Assembly (NCBI GenBank): GCA_000002435.2
Contig: CM018791.1
Direction: 5' to 3' (one strand)
From: Giardia intestinalis
Taxonomy: Eukaryota
DNA length: 64,000 nucleotides
Position 1 is the stretch's first letter, and the number at the start of each line of letters is the position of its first letter. The notes beneath the pieces are model-generated. The model was not told where the DNA came from. It worked only from the letters and a program-made list of their open reading frames with translations, and searched no databases. A program made the position numbers and the translations under genes. Below are positions 3,001-64,000 of the stretch, piece after piece.

Positions 3001-4631
3001 TGCTCTTTCATGACTGAAGGAGTATTTTCAAGAACACTAAAGACCCGGCTATGGAACCTTTGCTGAGCAGCAGCAACGGATAGAAAAAACTCATTCTCAA
3101 GCGCGCTAATGTGTCGCTGATAAGCTTCCTCTAGTTGCAACTTAAAGTCGCGTTCAGGATCATGCACAACGTCATCCAGCGCCTCCTTCTGGGAGTCTTC
3201 TTCCCTCCGTACATCATCAAGCATTGCATTGAGTACCTGGGTCATCTTTATCACCCGACTATCCACTTTAGTGCTCAAGGGTAGCAAGGGAATACGGGCG
3301 TTGGAAGCGATGGTCTGGACTAGATGGCTACGGCGGGCTGGAAGAGCAGGAGAATTGGCCCGCAAAATTGGGTTACTGTGTGTTACCTGAGACTGGGACC
3401 GTACTGGAGACTTTTGAGGTTCTGTGGAATGAGTGCTCTGCAATTGTGTCATGGTGAGATCGCGCTCCTCTAAACCCTGGTCATCTCTGGTGCACGAGAG
3501 CTTGGGTAACGCTTTTGGTACGCTGCCTACACGCTCTCCTGAGCGCTTCAGTAAACCACTGCGGTTTTGGAGCAGAAATGAATCTGTTTCCACTCCTGCT
3601 TGCGAACGAGATGGTATCAAATCCTTGGATGTTAAAACCGAGGAAGATCGCTTAGTGGGTAGGAGGGAAAGTGATGCTGTTGGCCCAGTTGATTTTGTAA
3701 GGGACGTAGCAAGGATAGATCCCTTGCTCCTTTTATTTAGATCTTCAAGAAGTAACTCTCGCTCGTTGTATGCCAGATGGCGTGCATATGTAAGAAGGAG
3801 TTGATTCAATGCGCGCTTTAAAAGAGGCGAGCGTTGGAGTTGACGCTGTATGGCCCAGTAGACATGGGTCAGATATAATTTTAGGTTCTGTAGGATGCAG
3901 TTATCTCTGTATGAAGAAGCATCCTCGAGCGGTCTTTCTTCCTCCAATATTGGCTGCGCTTCCCCCACCTTTTCAAAGATGTTGTGCGCAGCAGACCCGC
4001 CTGGATGGCCAGGTTGAAAGTAGCCCGGCCCCTGCTCCTGCACAAGCTGCATACGCGCAAGGTTCTTGACCTCTGTGTTTGTGAGGGTCTTCGTCACAGA
4101 CTTCTTATCGCGACGCCACGTCTTTGGAGCCAGCATAAGCTCCGAGAAGCTATCGATGCCGGGATCATCTAAAAGAAATATACGGTTTAGAGGAGTGGGC
4201 ATGCGTTTCCTGAAAGTTCCATTGAGTGTGTCTATGGTAATATCAACGATTCCCATCCCCATAGAAAGGTTTGCATAGACCAGGTTCCCCGGTAGATAAC
4301 AAGGTATTGCAGCGATGTGGTCTTCTAGTTCGACCACAAAGGATACATTCTTGATCAGTGCAGGCCACGGCCTGCGCACAGGATCTTCTAAGCCTGCCAC
4401 GGGAGGCCTGAAGTAGTGCTGCCGGCAGAGGCGCTCGATTGACACATCTCTTCTAAGCAATACCACTCTGCACTCGTAGCTGTCGTCCTGCCGAGGCTCT
4501 GAGTCTTCTCCAGAAGTTCTAAGTGAGAGCAACGCTGATAGCATTGTGTTGTTCTGCATTCCCCTGAGCGCCCGCGGAACCGTGACATGAGTCGGCGGCG
4601 GGGGCCGGTGCTTTGAACTGGATATGAACAT
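1..4631 (-). CDS. Large hypothetical protein, N-terminal >=1543 aa. ATG at 4629-4631; the ORF runs off the window at position 1. Hydrophobic helix-like segments (e.g. ...LVPYSIILATILIYYQYLH...). No family recognised.
   Basis: By-eye translation of the minus strand from the CAT at 4629-4631 met no in-frame stop down to position 1. The ORF track shows no minus-strand ORF >=60 aa anywhere in 1-4380, as expected if one truncated frame is open. AT-rich tract directly upstream of the ATG. Confidence 0.6.
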   Translation of the reverse strand, partial: MFISSSKHRPPPPTHVTVPRALRGMQNNTMLSALLSLRTSGEDSEPRQDDSYECRVVLLRRDVSIERLCRQHYFRPPVAGLEDPVRRPWPALIKNVSFVVELEDHIAAIPCYLPGNLVYANLSMGMGIVDITIDTLNGTFRKRMPTPLNRIFLLDDPGIDSFSELMLAPKTWRRDKKSVTKTLTNTEVKNLARMQLVQEQGPGYFQPGHPGGSAAHNIFEKVGEAQPILEEERPLEDASSYRDNCILQNLKLYLTHVYWAIQRQLQRSPLLKRALNQLLLTYARHLAYNERELLLEDLNKRSKGSILATSLTKSTGPTASLSLLPTKRSSSVLTSKDLIPSRSQAGVETDSFLLQNRSGLLKRSGERVGSVPKALPKLSCTRDDQGLEERDLTMTQLQSTHSTEPQKSPVRSQSQVTHSNPILRANSPALPARRSHLVQTIASNARIPLLPLSTKVDSRVIKMTQVLNAMLDDVRREEDSQKEALDDVVHDPERDFKLQLEEAYQRHISALENEFFLSVAAAQQRFHSRVFSVLENTPSVMKEHEIVVPKMGVLRPSLYTVGLSASATDVMPTSLIYEPTLPLGLFSHRIPTTSAWDCNLVLYGTEFSKRQSRLLSLRQTLAAQIRFQPCYVATAQPLIGNLVKISEALMDIFLDLSTLDQSNTRSCNLKIDNDGNIVLGSAHELIGRKDQLLEYTPVIEQTIASFIQYLDGMIAKINQHYEHIKFFESHDLFKERVDYFCNMDQLHDTRKKLSVEFAALRGSEDPCTIDNLIKTNDTIFIKALKYFLFYHTALVPYSIILATILIYYQYLHNHVVTKLEKDTQDSQEQGQEQDPEQSTKAASAATALATVKIYDATRIYFTLARMVASALNDLAERACHKVFMLALKPLKEFKYSDQGMQSISTLDDLSLIASRMYNYGFSRFDFVHNALFTQKSHLSFLYSADQQTISDMSRLDTVQTMPGAGLGAASSPEESFNPENYEDSLPQGGDAHDLKTIHRRRTDLTIETAMDVEGDEKMLSAQEALAAEHDIRTDKIAGCALACSEEDARLVSVPSVVTTVGYHYSFFDVLMTFSFNLSICVITGINWAAVERTHFDSIGFTYFANYMTRYSKQKFAISLQEQSMRFKVMAGYITAGEDKTNELQDEPLTEAEDDTMLNSIDARLELKEGYDVLLSLQKENKLIEIYDHTIADMYLDLPLVLMGNSAVVANRQDASNTNIGNVKRGPSASPASPMNFQPNDISNNSDAMTCGASLASDTYADILTQQRQRVLSRHYSKREESTSFSTDLLNTYTALLTHRKLSLLAIKERGVVTRLELSDRANEFSCLLDLTQDLFSDDFSPMSLMTSYREWFSTDKQIETLLSFDYERCLKIKEIKGLLLFGNHEQEFPLLDFSTPRSIIDKIENLRSIIVVFPDQFYASMITVSVRRMKENLLEALDYLEKHMINKLTEAIECFTKYILAELKFVSSLILSATTTPEKFQLVRDLHNKLSSDSACYIFSSLYDKFVLHYGTNYITLFPATYKKHLPALLEEPSRQFMKLAML

Positions 4632-4657: not shown

Positions 4658-4664
4658 ATTCACT
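4658..4664 (-). terminator. Giardia-type polyadenylation signal AGTGAAT for the arginine deiminase gene
   Basis: Matches AGTRAAY; 4 nt after the ADI stop (4668-4670). Lies between that stop and the next gene's ATG (4631). Confidence 0.7.
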
Positions 4665-4667
4665 GTT

Positions 4668-6410
4668 TCACTTGATATCGACGCAGATGTCAGCCTGCTC
4701 CAGGCCCAGATAACGCGTATAGGCTGCAGGTGCACCCTCAACCGCCTTGGGAGTAAAGGGCGTGAGCTGCGGGATCTTGTCCAGGACGGCCTTCAGAGAC
4801 CCGGCCTTGGCGGCACCCTTCAGGCTGACAACAGGCATCGACGGCATCCTCCACGTGATGTAAGGGACCCTTCCCTCAGATACGAGCTTTTGGTAGAGCC
4901 CGTACGCATCTGCGATGATCTCCCTGCTGGGAGCAGCATCATCTCTCAAGTTGATCTTCAGACCATCAATAAGGTCGTCCACGCTTGAGGGAATGTAGAT
5001 CACGCAATCAAACTTCTTCCCCGCCGCATCAACTGGCTCGCCATTCTTCTCATATATGGCGGCAATTCCGTCACCCTCCTGCTCACACGCCTTGACGGCA
5101 GCAGGGGCCAGCGGCGTGCGGTAAACAACCTGAGATGCGCAGTGCAGAGAGCCGTACATGCGGGTGATTCCTCGGAACGGAACGTAAACTAGATCGAGCC
5201 CGTTCGGCAAGTTGTTTGATTTGCAGTATGAGATGTACGCAGGATCTGCCTTGATGAAGTCCACTGTTGGTTGGTGGACGCTGAGGACGCAGTTGTTTCC
5301 CAGATTGAGATTATTGCAGCCATATGCAAGCTGGTACTCATGAGGAATGCGGACGATCGTGTAACCATTTTCGCTGAGCCACTGCTGGAACTCAACATTT
5401 GCCTTCGCCAAGACGTAATTTCCACAAGTGACTGCGGAGCTCTTTGCTTTTTTCACTGCATCAGCACCGACATCAATCCACTCGTCGACGTACCTCAGGC
5501 CCATCCCGGAGCAAATATAGTCATCGAGCACCACTAGCTTGTCGTGGAGGACGCTGAAGGTGCAGTCAAGGTGCATACGGTCCTGGTGCTGATCAAAGCA
5601 GTCCTTGACGACAGCAAACCGCCGGGTCCCGAGGAGATCTTTAGACATAAGATACTGCGCTCCGACATAGGTGCTGCGCAAGCCCACACCCATCATCGCC
5701 AGCCCGGGCGACACAGGCACGAAGTCCCCACCCTCGAGCATGCAGTGCGGTCCTCCCTCACGGCAGTCTCCCACGACGCGGGCCCCGAGGCGCTTCCAGA
5801 AGATCAGGGCCAGGACCTGCTCGCGCCTCCTCTGCGGCGCCTGAAACTGGCCCATGACTATTCCGCGCCGGGTGGTTATCTGCTGGTCACGCATAAAGAC
5901 CATGTTATTGCTATCGTGGATCTCCACAGAGTTGGTAACGAGAGCCGTGTTGCGGACACCAGGAGCTAGGTGGATGACGGGCTCGGATAAAATCACGTCT
6001 ACAAGGTTTCTGGTCGACAGGGCCGAAAGGACCTTGCGTTTGTACTCGTCCGAAACACAGTACTTCATCTTGGGGGTGATGCGTGCACCTGTGGCATGGA
6101 GCTCGTACTTCAGCGAGGCCATTGCTTGATCCATGAGGACCTCCCTCTCAGCCGGAGAGGCCTCGGAGAGGACGTCGTACGGCATATAAACCCGGCACCC
6201 CTTCTCCTTGAGAACGGCCTGGAAGCCCTCGTGATCGCGTCTGAGCTCGTCGGGGCATATGGGCTCCTCAAGCAAGTTCCCCTCGGGGTTGAGAGAGGTC
6301 AAGAACGACGTTCCCTGAGGGAGGTGCACGACGACTATCTCTGCGCGCTCGTTCTCTCCCCCCTGGGTTGCCTGTGCAAGCTTCTCTTTATCCTTGGAGA
6401 AGTCAGTCAT
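4668..6410 (-). CDS. ADI: Arginine deiminase (arginine dihydrolase pathway), 580 aa, with the long C-terminal extension typical of the Giardia enzyme
   Basis: Full-length ORF starting MTDFSKDKEKLAQ... The 580-aa length matches the published Giardia ADI. High-GC3 codon usage. A-rich tract before the ATG. AGTGAAT 4 nt after the stop. Confidence 0.9.
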   Translation of the reverse strand: MTDFSKDKEKLAQATQGGENERAEIVVVHLPQGTSFLTSLNPEGNLLEEPICPDELRRDHEGFQAVLKEKGCRVYMPYDVLSEASPAEREVLMDQAMASLKYELHATGARITPKMKYCVSDEYKRKVLSALSTRNLVDVILSEPVIHLAPGVRNTALVTNSVEIHDSNNMVFMRDQQITTRRGIVMGQFQAPQRRREQVLALIFWKRLGARVVGDCREGGPHCMLEGGDFVPVSPGLAMMGVGLRSTYVGAQYLMSKDLLGTRRFAVVKDCFDQHQDRMHLDCTFSVLHDKLVVLDDYICSGMGLRYVDEWIDVGADAVKKAKSSAVTCGNYVLAKANVEFQQWLSENGYTIVRIPHEYQLAYGCNNLNLGNNCVLSVHQPTVDFIKADPAYISYCKSNNLPNGLDLVYVPFRGITRMYGSLHCASQVVYRTPLAPAAVKACEQEGDGIAAIYEKNGEPVDAAGKKFDCVIYIPSSVDDLIDGLKINLRDDAAPSREIIADAYGLYQKLVSEGRVPYITWRMPSMPVVSLKGAAKAGSLKAVLDKIPQLTPFTPKAVEGAPAAYTRYLGLEQADICVDIK

Positions 6411-6684
6411 GTACTAGGATTTTTTTCTCCGGAAGTTTACACACCTCACGTGTAGACGTTTAGCTCTTCTCAAAAAGCATATAATAAATATATTAAATGC
6501 CAGGTTGGCGTTTTTCTATTGGCAGTTACACGCCGCGTTTCGCAGCCTCCCCCAATCCTCTTTGAATCTCTTTGACCGGTGTCGGTGGATCTACAGTTAC
6601 AGACCACAGTTTACTGTATAACCTCCCCTAAGTGAGGACGTGATGGACCTTAAGGGGCTCGAGGACCCCTCCGCCCCAATGCAA
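6411..6684 (-). promoter_or_regulatory. Upstream/promoter region of arginine deiminase, 274 bp (unusually long for this locus). It also contains the 3' UTR of the upstream ankyrin gene.
   Basis: A-rich initiator (gagaaaaaaatcctagtacATG on the minus strand). AT-rich block (aaaaagcatataataaatatattaaatg). Small hairpin tacacCTCACgtgta containing CACGTG. Direct repeat tctttgaatctctttga. Confidence 0.5.
6609..6615 (-). terminator. Polyadenylation signal AGTAAAC for the ankyrin/coiled-coil gene 6685..8967
   Basis: AGTRAAY match ~70 nt downstream of the stop, inside the ADI upstream region. Confidence 0.5.
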
Positions 6685-25546: not shown

Positions 25547-25553
25547 GTTTACT
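25547..25553 (-). terminator. Polyadenylation signal AGTAAAC for ACS
   Basis: AGTRAAY match 7 nt after the ACS stop. It sits in the 76-bp spacer that must also hold the promoter of the 3147-aa gene. Confidence 0.7.
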
Positions 25554-29869: not shown

Positions 29870-29876
29870 ATTTACT
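29870..29876 (-). terminator. Polyadenylation signal AGTAAAT for the coiled-coil gene 29895..30500
   Basis: AGTRAAY match 19 nt after the stop. Confidence 0.55.
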
Positions 29877-29894
29877 ACCAGTGGATACTACATC

Positions 29895-30500
29895 TTAGAA
29901 GAACTTCGACACCGTCTTTATTGTACTAAGTTCAAATCGAATGTCTGCAAGTTCCTTCTGGATCGCGAGGAGACACGAGGCGTCGCCACCAGCTTTTCTG
30001 TCATTAGAATCACATGCAAGAGACTCCATTGTACTTTTGGCCTCGTCCCTAAACGCCTCTAAGGTGTGTCGTGTGTCATCTATCTGTTCCTGAAGGTTTA
30101 AGATGTCATCGCTGTTCGCTTCCAGAACGTCCCGCACCTTTGCTAGGGTCTGTGTGAGCTGGCGAAACTGCCGCTGAGTCTCCAAGTGCCGTGTCTCCTG
30201 TGTTTCAATGAAACTGTTAATTCCCATCTCATCAAGAACCTCTCGTACTAGGTTCTTTATGAAGGTCTTGCTCACTCCTGTGGCCTCCATGCTTGCACTT
30301 TGCTCCAGCTCGTTGGCTGGGGTCGTTGCAGACGCCGTAAGGGCTTTGCTCTCTGTGTATCTCTCGCGAGCATTGAGATTTGAGCTGTGGGTGTGCGGCC
30401 GCCTGGCCGGTGACTGGGGTCGGTAAATGTAATCTCTATGAACTGCCGCCGCCTCCGAGAGATGCGGGTTCATGCATTTGACCGTCAAAAACTTGGACAT
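29895..30500 (-). CDS. Small coiled-coil protein, 201 aa, hypothetical. An alternative start at the second ATG (~30473) is possible.
   Basis: ORF with heptad-rich C-terminal half. AGTAAAT ~19 nt downstream of the stop (29870-29876). Its 5' end overlaps, or abuts by 4 nt, the divergent gene at 30472. Confidence 0.55.
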   Translation of the reverse strand: MSKFLTVKCMNPHLSEAAAVHRDYIYRPQSPARRPHTHSSNLNARERYTESKALTASATTPANELEQSASMEATGVSKTFIKNLVREVLDEMGINSFIETQETRHLETQRQFRQLTQTLAKVRDVLEANSDDILNLQEQIDDTRHTLEAFRDEAKSTMESLACDSNDRKAGGDASCLLAIQKELADIRFELSTIKTVSKFF

Positions 30501-30816
30501 TTTTATGCCGTATCGTCTGGATGTTTACGTGCCAGAGGAAGCTGTGGAGACTGTTAAAGAGGCTCTTTTTGCAGCGGGGGCAGGGAAAATAGGCAACTAT
30601 GACTGCTGTTGTTATACAACAAAAGGTGTTGGCCAGTTTAGGCCGCTTCCAGGCTCCAATCCAGCCAAGGGTAGCTTGGGTAACGTATGTGTCTGTGCCG
30701 AAGATAAGCTAGAGATGATCGTCGCTGACGGTTGTATAGACTCTGTGATAGAGGCCTTGCGAAAAGCTCACCCCTACGAGACACCGGCTTTCCAGTATTG
30801 GAAGGTCAACTCGTAG
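30472..30816 (+). CDS. Stand-alone PII/CutA-like domain protein, 114 aa (103 aa if it starts at the second ATG, ~30505). Resembles the inserted domain of YqfO-type NIF3 proteins.
   Basis: Motif string VYVPEEAVETVKEALFAAGAGKIGNYDCCCY..KGVGQFRPLPGSNPAKG...HPYETPAFQY. It resembles the GAGxIGNYxxCSF...GxGxFxPxxGANPxxG...HPYEEP signature I recall for the NIF3 insert domain, and the HPYExPE of CutA. AGTGAAC 17 nt after the stop. Confidence 0.5.
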   Translation: MHLTVKNLDIFMPYRLDVYVPEEAVETVKEALFAAGAGKIGNYDCCCYTTKGVGQFRPLPGSNPAKGSLGNVCVCAEDKLEMIVADGCIDSVIEALRKAHPYETPAFQYWKVNS

Positions 30817-30833: not shown

Positions 30834-30840
30834 AGTGAAC
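30834..30840 (+). terminator. Polyadenylation signal AGTGAAC for the PII-like gene
   Basis: AGTRAAY match 17 nt after the TAG at 30814-30816. Confidence 0.6.
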
Positions 30841-43582: not shown

Positions 43583-43589
43583 AGTAAAC
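43583..43589 (+). terminator. Polyadenylation signal AGTAAAC for gene 42667..43572
   Basis: AGTRAAY match 11 nt after the stop. Confidence 0.6.
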
Positions 43590-49470: not shown

Positions 49471-49477
49471 GTTTACT
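49471..49477 (-). terminator. Polyadenylation signal AGTAAAC overlapping the TAA stop of the proteasome alpha gene
   Basis: The minus strand reads ...CAG ACA GAG TAA ACA AAC...; the stop codon is embedded in the AGTAAAC motif. Confidence 0.6.
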
Positions 49478-62114: not shown

Positions 62115-62149
62115 CAGAAGAGAAATCGGTTTACTTAAACACTATGTAA

Positions 62150-62784: not shown

Positions 62785-62791
62785 ATTCACT
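62785..62791 (-). terminator. Polyadenylation signal AGTGAAT for alpha-tubulin
   Basis: AGTRAAY match 3 nt after the tubulin TAA, inside the 30-nt spacer before the V-ATPase E ATG (62764). Confidence 0.7.
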
Positions 62792-62794
62792 CGC

Positions 62795-64000
62795 TTAGTA
62801 GGCGTCGTCCTCCTCCATGTCCTCGCCCTCGCCGTCGCCAAGGGTCTCGGCGCCGATCTCCTCGTAGTCCTTCTCGAGGGCGGCGAGGTCCTCGCGGGCC
62901 TCGGAGAACTCGCCCTCCTCCATGCCCTCACCGACGTACCAGTGCACGAAGGCGCGCTTGGCGTACATCAGATCGAACTTGTGGTCCATGCGGGACCAGA
63001 CCTCGGCGATGGCCGTCGTGTTGGAGATCATGAGGCAGGAGCGCTGGACCTTCGCAAGGTCGCCGCCGGGGATGACGGTCGGGGGCTGGTAGTTGATGCC
63101 GACCTTGAAGCCTGTCGGGCACCAGTCGACGAACTGGATCGTGCGCTTCGTCTTGATGACCGCGATGGCCGCGTTGACGTCCTTCGGGACGACGTCGCCG
63201 CGGTACATCATGCAGCACGCCATGTACTTGCCGTGGCGGGGGTCGCACTTGACCATCATGTTCGCCGGCTCGAAGACGGAGTTGGTGAGCTCGGCGACGG
63301 AGAGCTTCTCGTGGTACGCCTTCTCGGACGAGATGATGGGCGCGTACGAGCAGAGCGGGAAGTGGATGCGCGGGTACGGGACGAGGTTCGTCTGGAACTC
63401 CGTCAGGTCGACGTTGAGGGCGCCGTCGAAGCGGAGCGAGGCCGTGATCGAGGAGATGCACTGGGCGATCAGGCGGTTGAGGTTCGTGTATGTCGGGCGC
63501 TCGATGTCGAGGTTGCGGCGGCAGATGTCGTACATGGCCTCGTTGTCGACCATGAAGGCGCAGTCGGAGTGCTCAAGCATCGAGTGCGCGGCGAGGATCG
63601 TGTTGTACGGCTCGACGACGGCCGTCGCGATCTGGGGCGAGGGGTAGACGACGAACTCGAGCTTGGACTTGCGGCCGTAGTCGACGCTCAGGCGCTCGAG
63701 GAAGAGGGACCCGAAGCCGGCGCCCGTGCCTCCTCCGAAGGAGTGGAAGATCAGGAAGCCCTGGAGCCCGGAGCAGTTGTCTGCGAGCTTGCGGACGCGG
63801 TCGAGGACGAGGTCGACGATCTCCTTGCCGATCGTGTAGTGCCCGCGGGCGTAGTTGTTGGCGGCGTCCTCCTTGCCAGAGATCAGCTGCTCGGGGTGGT
63901 AGAGCTGGCGGTACGAGCCCGCGCGGACCTCGTCGACGACCGTGGGCTCGAGGTCAACGAAGACCGCGCGCGGGACGTGCTTGCCGGCGCCCGTCTCCGA
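62795..64000 (-). CDS. Alpha-tubulin, C-terminal ~400 aa. The 5' end lies beyond the window. Ends ...[14 protein letters not shown].
   Basis: The track ORF 62795..63580 begins at an internal Met. Translation of the minus strand up to 64000 continues the alpha-tubulin sequence (...[14 protein letters not shown]... at 63960-64000). Very GC3-rich. AGTGAAT 3-9 nt after the stop. Confidence 0.95.

Follow-up and report, generated by a model that had tools for sequence, protein, structure and literature searches.

A stand-alone PII-like domain of the YqfO insert type with bacterial affinity in Giardia intestinalis

The 64,000-nucleotide stretch of the Giardia intestinalis genome analyzed here (assembly GCA_000002435.2, contig CM018791.1; in the following called the window) contains a small gene, GL50803_4355, that raises a twofold question: what does a protein resembling the domain inserted into YqfO-type NIF3 proteins do on its own in a eukaryotic nuclear genome, and where does it come from? 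An earlier note, made from the DNA letters alone, had pointed to an open reading frame (ORF) of 103 to 114 amino acids (aa) with such a resemblance. We found this ORF at 30472..30816 on the plus strand, with the residues quoted in the note exact; it encodes 114 aa from its first ATG and 103 aa from an inner in-frame ATG at 30505. Judged from its sequence, GL50803_4355 is a single PII-like domain and a stand-alone member of COG3323, falling into "subgroup D" of Reed et al. 2021.

Family membership was established with a phmmer search against all PDB chains. GL50803_4355 aligned to residues 164-259 of Bacillus cereus YqfO (2gx8; E=1.6e-15) and to residues 136-234 of Staphylococcus aureus SA1388 (2nyd/3lnl; E=3.3e-13), which bears out the proposed likeness to the YqfO-type insert. 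Since the inserted PII-like domain of SA1388 comprises residues 128-235 (PMC1779786), the similarity lies with the insert rather than with the NIF3 core. The protein aligns only to this part of NIF3-family structures, and it is the insert to which the database name "Nif3-related" refers. A CutA-like HPYE end had also been suggested; in the same search, CutA1 proteins matched solely via the terminal HPYETPA motif (E about 0.4). Scans of the curated libraries left CutA1 below threshold, both in Pfam (PF03091, 15.9 versus a cutoff of 22.4 bits) and in NCBIfam (NF041095, 13.6 versus 120 bits), so that of the matches expected in the earlier note, to the insert domain or to CutA1, those to the insert were found, as significant hits in the PDB. 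The canonical PII profile PF00543 gave no Pfam match at E≤10, and the NIF3 core (PF01784, COG0327) gave none in Pfam or NCBIfam. Because no curated profile in either library matched the domain, neither library can classify the protein. The absence of an attached core was confirmed at the DNA level, as tblastn with the NIF3-N and NIF3-C halves detected no similarity in the 64-kb window.

A word-indexed search of 5.8 billion proteins yielded 690 homologues. The sequences from the Giardia assemblages were 81 to 100% identical, and the best matches after these were bacterial proteins of 102 to 108 aa with 55 to 67% identity. The latter, where named, are called "YqfO family protein," "NGG1p interacting factor NIF3," "Bsu YqfO NIF3/CutA domain," "CutA," or "RtxA," and a few bacterial homologues had been labeled beforehand with PF00543 or PF03091. 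Among 1.84 billion cluster representatives, a profile search gave 3918 matches at E≤1e-3, 2677 of them at E≤1e-10, comprising stand-alone proteins of ~105 aa as well as fused proteins of ~370 aa with the domain at ~133-235. The HPYE tetrapeptide (H89-P90-Y91-E92) is present in GL50803_4355 and invariant in the 135 family representatives classified by us (81 stand-alone and 54 fused). This motif, the signature of IPR015867, divides subgroups D-G from subgroups A-C in the classification of Reed, Hutinet, and de Crecy-Lagard, in which "subgroups D/E" comprise stand-alone versions of the domain that subgroups F/G carry as an insert (PMC8469502).

The predicted structure agrees with this assignment. 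An AlphaFold2 monomer model built from a 69-sequence alignment reached a predicted local distance difference test (pLDDT) score of 97.5 and shows a beta-alpha-beta-beta-alpha-beta arrangement with strands at residues 3-10, 37-45, 62-73, and 96-100 and helices at residues 11-23 and 75-88, i.e., the ferredoxin-like fold anticipated in the earlier note. In a Foldseek search against the PDB, the three chains of 2gx8 ranked at the top, with template modeling (TM) scores of 0.81 to 0.83 and root mean square deviations (rmsd) of 1.5 to 1.8 Å, making the YqfO insert the best structural match; CutA1 and PII trimers ranked next (TM 0.55 to 0.70).

We then considered which of the two starts is used. The coding sequence (CDS) of GL50803_4355 at 30505..30816 (+) ends with a TAG stop codon at 30814-30816 and is bounded 5' by ATG 30505; its 103-aa product is identical to XP_001705741.2/KAE8303299.1 of G. 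intestinalis WB. The older RefSeq model, XP_001705741.1, comprised 114 aa and was named "Nif3-related protein," while the current 103-aa model is called "hypothetical protein" in RefSeq and "Nif3-related protein" in UniRef. ATG 30505 is present in all four Giardia lineages compared, whereas ATG 30472 is replaced by ATA in assemblage E (P15) and by AGG in a fourth lineage (lineage X). Moreover, bacterial homologues start at the position equivalent to 30505 and lack the extension. As indicated by start codon conservation, by the bacterial homologues, and by the shortening of the RefSeq model, the true product is the 103-aa form, and the upstream extension MHLTVKNLDIF of the older model (30472..30504, +) is most likely untranslated. 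The conservation of these 33 nucleotides (nt) can be attributed to their overlap with the N terminus of a divergent gene on the minus strand (29895..30500). The two genes form a head-to-head pair with start codons 4 nt apart (TTTT). The minus-strand neighbor is an ORF of 201 aa with no Pfam match on record; its N terminus, MSKFLTVKC, is retained via synonymous changes in the four Giardia lineages, and for this reason both starts look genuine. With genuine starts this close, each promoter would lie inside the CDS of the other gene. In assemblage B, the 201-aa neighbor was called as 131 aa only.

GL50803_4355 evolves under strong constraint. The ratio of nonsynonymous to synonymous substitution rates (dN/dS) was 0.066 between WB and P15 and 0.033 between WB and GS, with synonymous sites near saturation, and the ORF is intact in the four Giardia lineages, with all family invariants retained. 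The gene order DSP phosphatase, 201-aa gene, GL50803_4355, MetAP2 is kept in P15 (assemblage E) and GS (assemblage B); on the shorter contig of lineage X, the MetAP2 side is retained. The GC content (0.50) and the GC content at third codon positions (GC3, 0.51) lie within the range of neighboring genes. Transcriptome sequencing of axenic trophozoites listed GL50803_4355 with ~96 to 112 normalized units (PMC4670223, supplement). Given purifying selection, synteny, host-like composition, transcripts, and a polyadenylation-type motif 3' of the stop codon, the gene is functional and domesticated.

Regarding the origin of the gene, all named close relatives among the matches listed are bacterial. 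In a scan of GTDB species representatives, the best 80 loci all encode stand-alone proteins and belong to Lentisphaerota (Victivallales and relatives; 52 to 64% identity) and to Gammaproteobacteria (Pseudomonas, Microbulbifer, Psychrobacter, and others; 49 to 62% identity), and they include one member each of the Kiritimatiellota and the Desulfobulbaceae. Fused inserts are just 29 to 47% identical to the Giardia protein. In a neighbor-joining tree, the four Giardia sequences were monophyletic (bootstrap, 100%) within a stand-alone bacterial clade distinct from the fused inserts. Giardia had Lentisphaerota, unnamed metagenome-assembled genomes, or Kiritimatiellota as its sister group in ~70% of the replicates and a gammaproteobacterial one in 13%. 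The closest non-Giardia protein is encoded in a Lentisphaerota-type locus with the order gene, M50-like peptidase, xseA. No homologue from Giardia muris or another eukaryote appeared among the 120 matches listed, which is weak negative evidence. Since the closest relatives are bacterial stand-alone proteins with 55 to 67% identity, the simplest reading is that the gene was probably acquired by lateral transfer from a bacterium, and the donor was probably PVC-like (Lentisphaerota/PVC being favored) or a gammaproteobacterial lineage. Such a transfer would be older than the divergence of the G. intestinalis assemblages, with full domestication of the gene since then. Two viral sequences also came up. 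A 54-kb viral contig (IMGVR_UViG_3300034220_000043) carries a partial homologue (4001-4150 of the locus) that covers residues 4-52 with 50% identity and is truncated by the end of the contig, and the 148-aa viral model J3IYW3 of the BFVD superposes with a TM score of 0.91 at 38% identity; both are probably giant-virus copies like mimivirus R836.

To locate functional residues, conservation was counted in the 115 closest non-Giardia homologues and, for the wider family, in the 81 stand-alone and 54 fused representatives. Four segments stand out, all on the plus strand. In the loop that connects helix 1 to strand 2 (residues 25-36, GAGKIGNYDCCC; 30577..30612), G25, G27, Y32, and C35 are family-invariant, and the same holds for G41, G43, F45, P53, and G56 in the segment formed by the end of strand 2 and the equivalent of the T-loop (residues 41-61, GVGQFRPLPGSNPAKGSLGNV; 30625..30687). 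Residues 36-60 correspond to residues 169-193 of SA1388, which were disordered in the crystal and labeled T-loop (PMC1779786). On strand 3, residues 66-70 (E-D-K-L-E; 30700..30714) place the invariant E66 and E70 and the nearly invariant K68 on a single strand face. Finally, the loop that leads from helix 2 to strand 4 carries HPYETPA (residues 89-95; 30769..30789), the signature common to CutA1, of which H89, P90, Y91, E92, and A95 are invariant whether the protein is stand-alone or fused. In both architectures, conservation reaches at least 90% at the same 17 positions (P10, G25, G27, Y32, C35, G41, G43, F45, P53, G56, E66, E70, H89, P90, Y91, E92, and A95), so that the domain has one intrinsic chemistry in its fused and its free state.

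The conserved loop also harbors a cysteine triplet, for which the earlier note had proposed a role as a metal or redox site. Among the close homologues, C34 is found in 86 of 115, C35 in all 115, and C36 in 89, and most show the motif D-C-C-C-[W/F]. In the wider family, C35 is present in 77/81 stand-alone and 51/54 fused representatives, while position 34 is mostly R, S, or H and position 36 mostly A, S, C, or T. The proposal is thus weakened, as only the central C35 is conserved family-wide. We also considered the triplet as a cysteine enrichment specific to Giardia and rejected this, because most of the closest bacterial homologues carry it and Giardia would have inherited it from that bacterial subclade.

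A comparison of the family profile with Escherichia coli CutA (sequence of 1naq) using hhalign gave an alignment that spans the C-terminal half only, at 84% probability, and that pairs E66 with CutA E61 and H89-P-Y-E92 with CutA H84-P-Y-Q87. According to a 2025 study, CutA has a conserved intersubunit pocket that binds pteridines and Cu, and an E59A/E61A/E90A mutant complements poorly (PMC12685090). As E66 and the HPYE motif align with residues of this pocket, we propose a ligand pocket homologous to that of CutA1.

Based on these data, the reading that we favor, with a probability of roughly 55%, is that GL50803_4355 acts, by analogy with PII and CutA proteins, as an autonomous trimeric signaling protein that binds a small ligand, possibly assisted by a metal, and exerts its output via protein partners. 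The protein would assemble into a homotrimer like PII, CutA1, and the lid of SA1388, whose insert trimerizes like GlnK and CutA (PMC1779786). Three intersubunit clefts, lined by Y32, C35, E66, E70, H89-P-Y-E92, and the conserved glycine-rich T-loop, would bind the ligand and possibly a metal ion, their pocket being the homologue of the pteridine/Cu pocket of CutA1, and ligand occupancy may alter how the trimer engages partner proteins. Lacking a NIF3 core, the protein would then be an autonomous sensor or carrier and not an enzyme of the NIF3 dimetal type.

Several points weigh against this reading. We infer trimer formation and ligand binding by analogy, for GL50803_4355 and for every stand-alone member alike, and no ligand is known for the YqfO/SA1388 insert (PMC1779786). 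The similarity to CutA is partial, both in the span and probability of the alignment given above and in its residues, as CutA E59 and E90 are without a conserved counterpart (V64 and A95, respectively, are found there). Where the family consensus has E62 and H13, Giardia has C or F and A, respectively, so that its pocket may differ. Bacterial gene neighborhoods yield no consistent functional clue. With respect to origin, no deep node of the neighbor-joining tree exceeded a bootstrap of 7%, which limits the naming of a donor lineage, and the gene may instead have been acquired earlier and passed on vertically, or transferred more than once.

The alternative that fares best against an autonomous binding protein, although it appears distinctly less probable, is a "split YqfO," in which the free trimer represents a detached lid that docks in trans on a separate NIF3 hexamer and gates or regulates its dimetal site, in the way proposed for the covalent insert of SA1388 and YqfO. 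The core partner would be GL50803_9239 in Giardia and a YbgI-type protein in bacteria. The earlier note had left room for a NIF3 core encoded separately in Giardia, and a gene annotated as "Nif3-related" does exist elsewhere in the genome: GL50803_9239 (268 aa, 29.8 kDa) was detected by mass spectrometry in a proteomic study of metronidazole resistance (PMC5913674, supplementary file 7). Its length equals that of an insert-less NIF3 core, the Entamoeba NIF3 having about 267 aa, and judged from its name and size the protein is presumably such a core. The eggNOG COG0327 export of Reed et al. contains no Giardia among the entries listed, from which we had considered that Giardia lacks a NIF3 core; this was dropped, since the proteomic study lists GL50803_9239.

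Docking in trans gains support from the fusion of the domain to a NIF3 core in 54/135 classified representatives, a classical hint of a functional link, and from the identity of the invariant residues in fused and stand-alone forms. Stand-alone forms are also nearly always accompanied by a core-bearing paralogue, the sole core-less case reported being mimivirus; a DUF34 member, ACA1_096770, is listed for Acanthamoeba, the genus of the mimivirus host (PMC8469502). However, this co-occurrence is little informative, as the NIF3 core is near-universal, and in 85 bacterial loci tblastn with NIF3-N and NIF3-C gave no match up to 6 kb away from the gene, i.e., no genomic linkage to a core. The lid of SA1388 sits on long stems and is highly mobile (PMC1779786), suggesting little direct interface, and the stand-alone proteins form a clade apart from the fused inserts. 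Reed et al. likewise judged that the stand-alone forms serve a function different from that of the core (PMC8469502). A more specific version, in which the trimer binds a heterocyclic metabolite and/or a metal and reversibly caps the GL50803_9239 toroid, with the same occurring in bacteria that have stand-alone COG3323 and insert-less NIF3, seems to us doubtful and slightly less probable again. If this version were true, the gene would offer, in a genetically tractable eukaryote, a handle on the unknown function of NIF3/DUF34.

A small enzyme, in contrast to a binding module, appears improbable. Here C35 would serve as nucleophile or redox center, aided by His89, Tyr32 or Tyr91, and the strand-3 glutamates, with C34 and C36 forming a redox-active cluster in the subclade. 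Conservation is unusually strong for a binding module (Giardia and bacterial sequences are 55 to 67% identical, and Cys, His, Tyr, and Glu are among the 17 positions conserved family-wide), a report on the PII-like SbtB describes redox-regulated apyrase activity (PMC9974498), and some bacterial neighbors are redox related (CDGSH in Pseudomonas, thioredoxin-TPR in Microbulbifer, and nitroreductase/OYE in one Lentisphaerota locus). Yet these neighbors are lineage specific and not conserved, most of the family has R/S/H instead of C34 and A/S instead of C36, COG3323 and CutA members are without known enzymatic activity, and ligand-binding regulators dominate the fold family. That the ORF is spurious or a decaying, functionless relic of transfer, as its short length (103 aa), its location 4 nt from a divergent gene start, and its RefSeq name "hypothetical protein" might suggest, is effectively refuted by the selection and expression data (dN/dS of 0.03 to 0.07 with near-saturated synonymous change, integrity and flanking order across lineages, 55 to 67% identity to bacteria with the invariants retained, and detected transcripts).

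The neighborhoods of the 85 bacterial homologues showed no common partner, and as arrangements differ by lineage, no function can be inferred from them. In Lentisphaerota/Victivallales, the COG3323 gene is followed by a gene for a Peptidase_M50-like membrane protein of 205 to 235 aa and then by xseA, encoding the large subunit of exonuclease VII. This order was seen in 16 loci, in most of which the homologue matched at about 6001-6321 of the locus; the gaps were 2 to 15 nt where gene calls existed, and cysS was located directly upstream in one locus and farther upstream in another. The arrangement looks like a conserved operon whose functional logic is not obvious. In loci from Pseudomonas and relatives, the gene is preceded by an ORF of 1298 aa (purL sized), and an ORF for a CDGSH iron-sulfur protein lies between the two in at least six loci. 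A thioredoxin-TPR (CnoX/YbbN-like) gene was found directly upstream in four loci from Microbulbifer and Porticoccaceae, and other Gammaproteobacteria have a divergent block of a ~990-aa ORF, TPMT, and a 91-aa ORF. In one Lentisphaerota locus, a nitroreductase and an OYE flavoenzyme are encoded nearby. The CDGSH and thioredoxin-TPR neighbors hint at a redox or Fe-S connection, albeit weakly and only in particular lineages.

The gene had already been annotated and its family already described, and the biochemical function is unknown in all members. Giardia is absent from the data set of Reed et al. (PMC8469502). A literature search of main texts found no paper that pairs Giardia with NIF3 or names GL50803_4355 or GL50803_9239; GL50803_4355 was not among the entries listed in the supplement of the G. 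muris genome paper, and the supplements of a diplomonad paper gave no match. For Pseudomonas syringae YqfO03, a protein of 103 aa, purification and nematicidal activity were reported (PMC6321441); this activity offers no clue to a cellular role. The mimivirus COG3323 gene was stated to be shared only with bacteria (PMC8469502 supplement, citing Moreira and Brochier-Armanet 2008), a statement to which the Giardia gene, as a eukaryotic nuclear copy, is an exception. The present analysis adds the assignment of the start codon, the affinity of the gene to bacterial ones and its domestication, C35 as the sole family-wide cysteine of the triplet, the pocket residues common to CutA, and a second Giardia gene that is separately annotated as NIF3-like.

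Few proteins without a known function are as widely conserved as NIF3/DUF34 and its PII-like insert. That the insert alone, following an apparent transfer from bacteria, is under strong purifying selection in a eukaryote argues for a biochemical activity of its own, which presumably consists in binding a ligand via the invariant Cys, His, Tyr, and Glu residues. The gene further adds a eukaryotic case to a family formerly described from bacteria and a giant virus only, and it is one more bacterium-derived Giardia gene that is absent from the human host, by which we suggest neither essentiality nor drug-target status.

Downstream of GL50803_4355, 17 nt past the stop codon, lies AGTGAAC (30834..30840, +), which matches AGTRAAY, the Giardia polyadenylation consensus. 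The window contains 35 copies of this motif versus 30.8 expected, i.e., no overall enrichment. Many copies are located within a few tens of nucleotides 3' of long ORFs and on the matching strand, for example at 4658-4664 (-), 6609-6615 (-), 25547-25553 (-), 29870-29876 (-), 43583-43589 (+), 49471-49477 (-), 62129-62135 (-), and 62785-62791 (-). This placement fits a polyadenylation signal and can help to define where genes end in the window. One other ORF in the window differs in composition: the 261-aa ORF at 62795..63580 (-) has a GC content of 0.64 and a GC3 of 0.97, compared to a GC3 of 0.47 to 0.71 in the other long ORFs; codon bias of this extent could point to very high expression or to a foreign base composition.

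Among known systems, the insert of YqfO (2GX8) and SA1388 (2NYD/3LNL), "Group III" of the PII superfamily, shares with GL50803_4355 sequence similarity over the whole domain, the fold (TM 0.83, rmsd 1.5 Å), and the invariants G-x-G...Y32, C35, G-x-G-x-F, P53, G56, E66, E70, and HPYE-x-P-A. In contrast to these proteins, GL50803_4355 consists of the domain as a whole protein, without NIF3-N and NIF3-C halves or a dimetal site, and shows features of the stand-alone clade, namely, W, F, or Y at position 37, Q44, R46, and often C34 and C36. Bacterial COG3323 proteins, such as P. syringae YqfO03 (VT47_06255, 103 aa), are alike in length and architecture, are 49 to 67% identical, and in most of the closest members have the D-C-C-C motif in common with the Giardia protein; the Giardia copy differs in its location in a eukaryotic nuclear genome with Giardia neighbors, a Giardia-type polyadenylation motif, and host-like composition, and in the changes of E62 to C or F and of H13 to A. 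Mimivirus R836 is likewise a stand-alone COG3323 copy outside bacteria that has been attributed to bacterial transfer (PMC8469502 supplement), but it is viral and not cellular, as is BFVD model J3IYW3, which at 148 aa has extra residues.

The relation to the other trimeric families is more distant. CutA1 (PF03091) has the trimeric PII-like fold (TM 0.6 to 0.7), the H-P-Y-E/Q-T-P motif, and the pocket glutamate on strand 3, and both proteins carry a conserved Cys at the start of strand 2, the equivalence of which is by position only; the N-terminal half, however, is unaligned, and CutA is without the GAGxIGNY loop and the G-x-G-Q-F-R-P T-loop. Canonical PII proteins (GlnB/GlnK, PF00543) resemble GL50803_4355 in the (beta-alpha-beta)2 fold and in a long loop at the T-loop position, but there is no match at the sequence level, and none of the signature motifs for ATP/2-oxoglutarate binding were detected in GL50803_4355.

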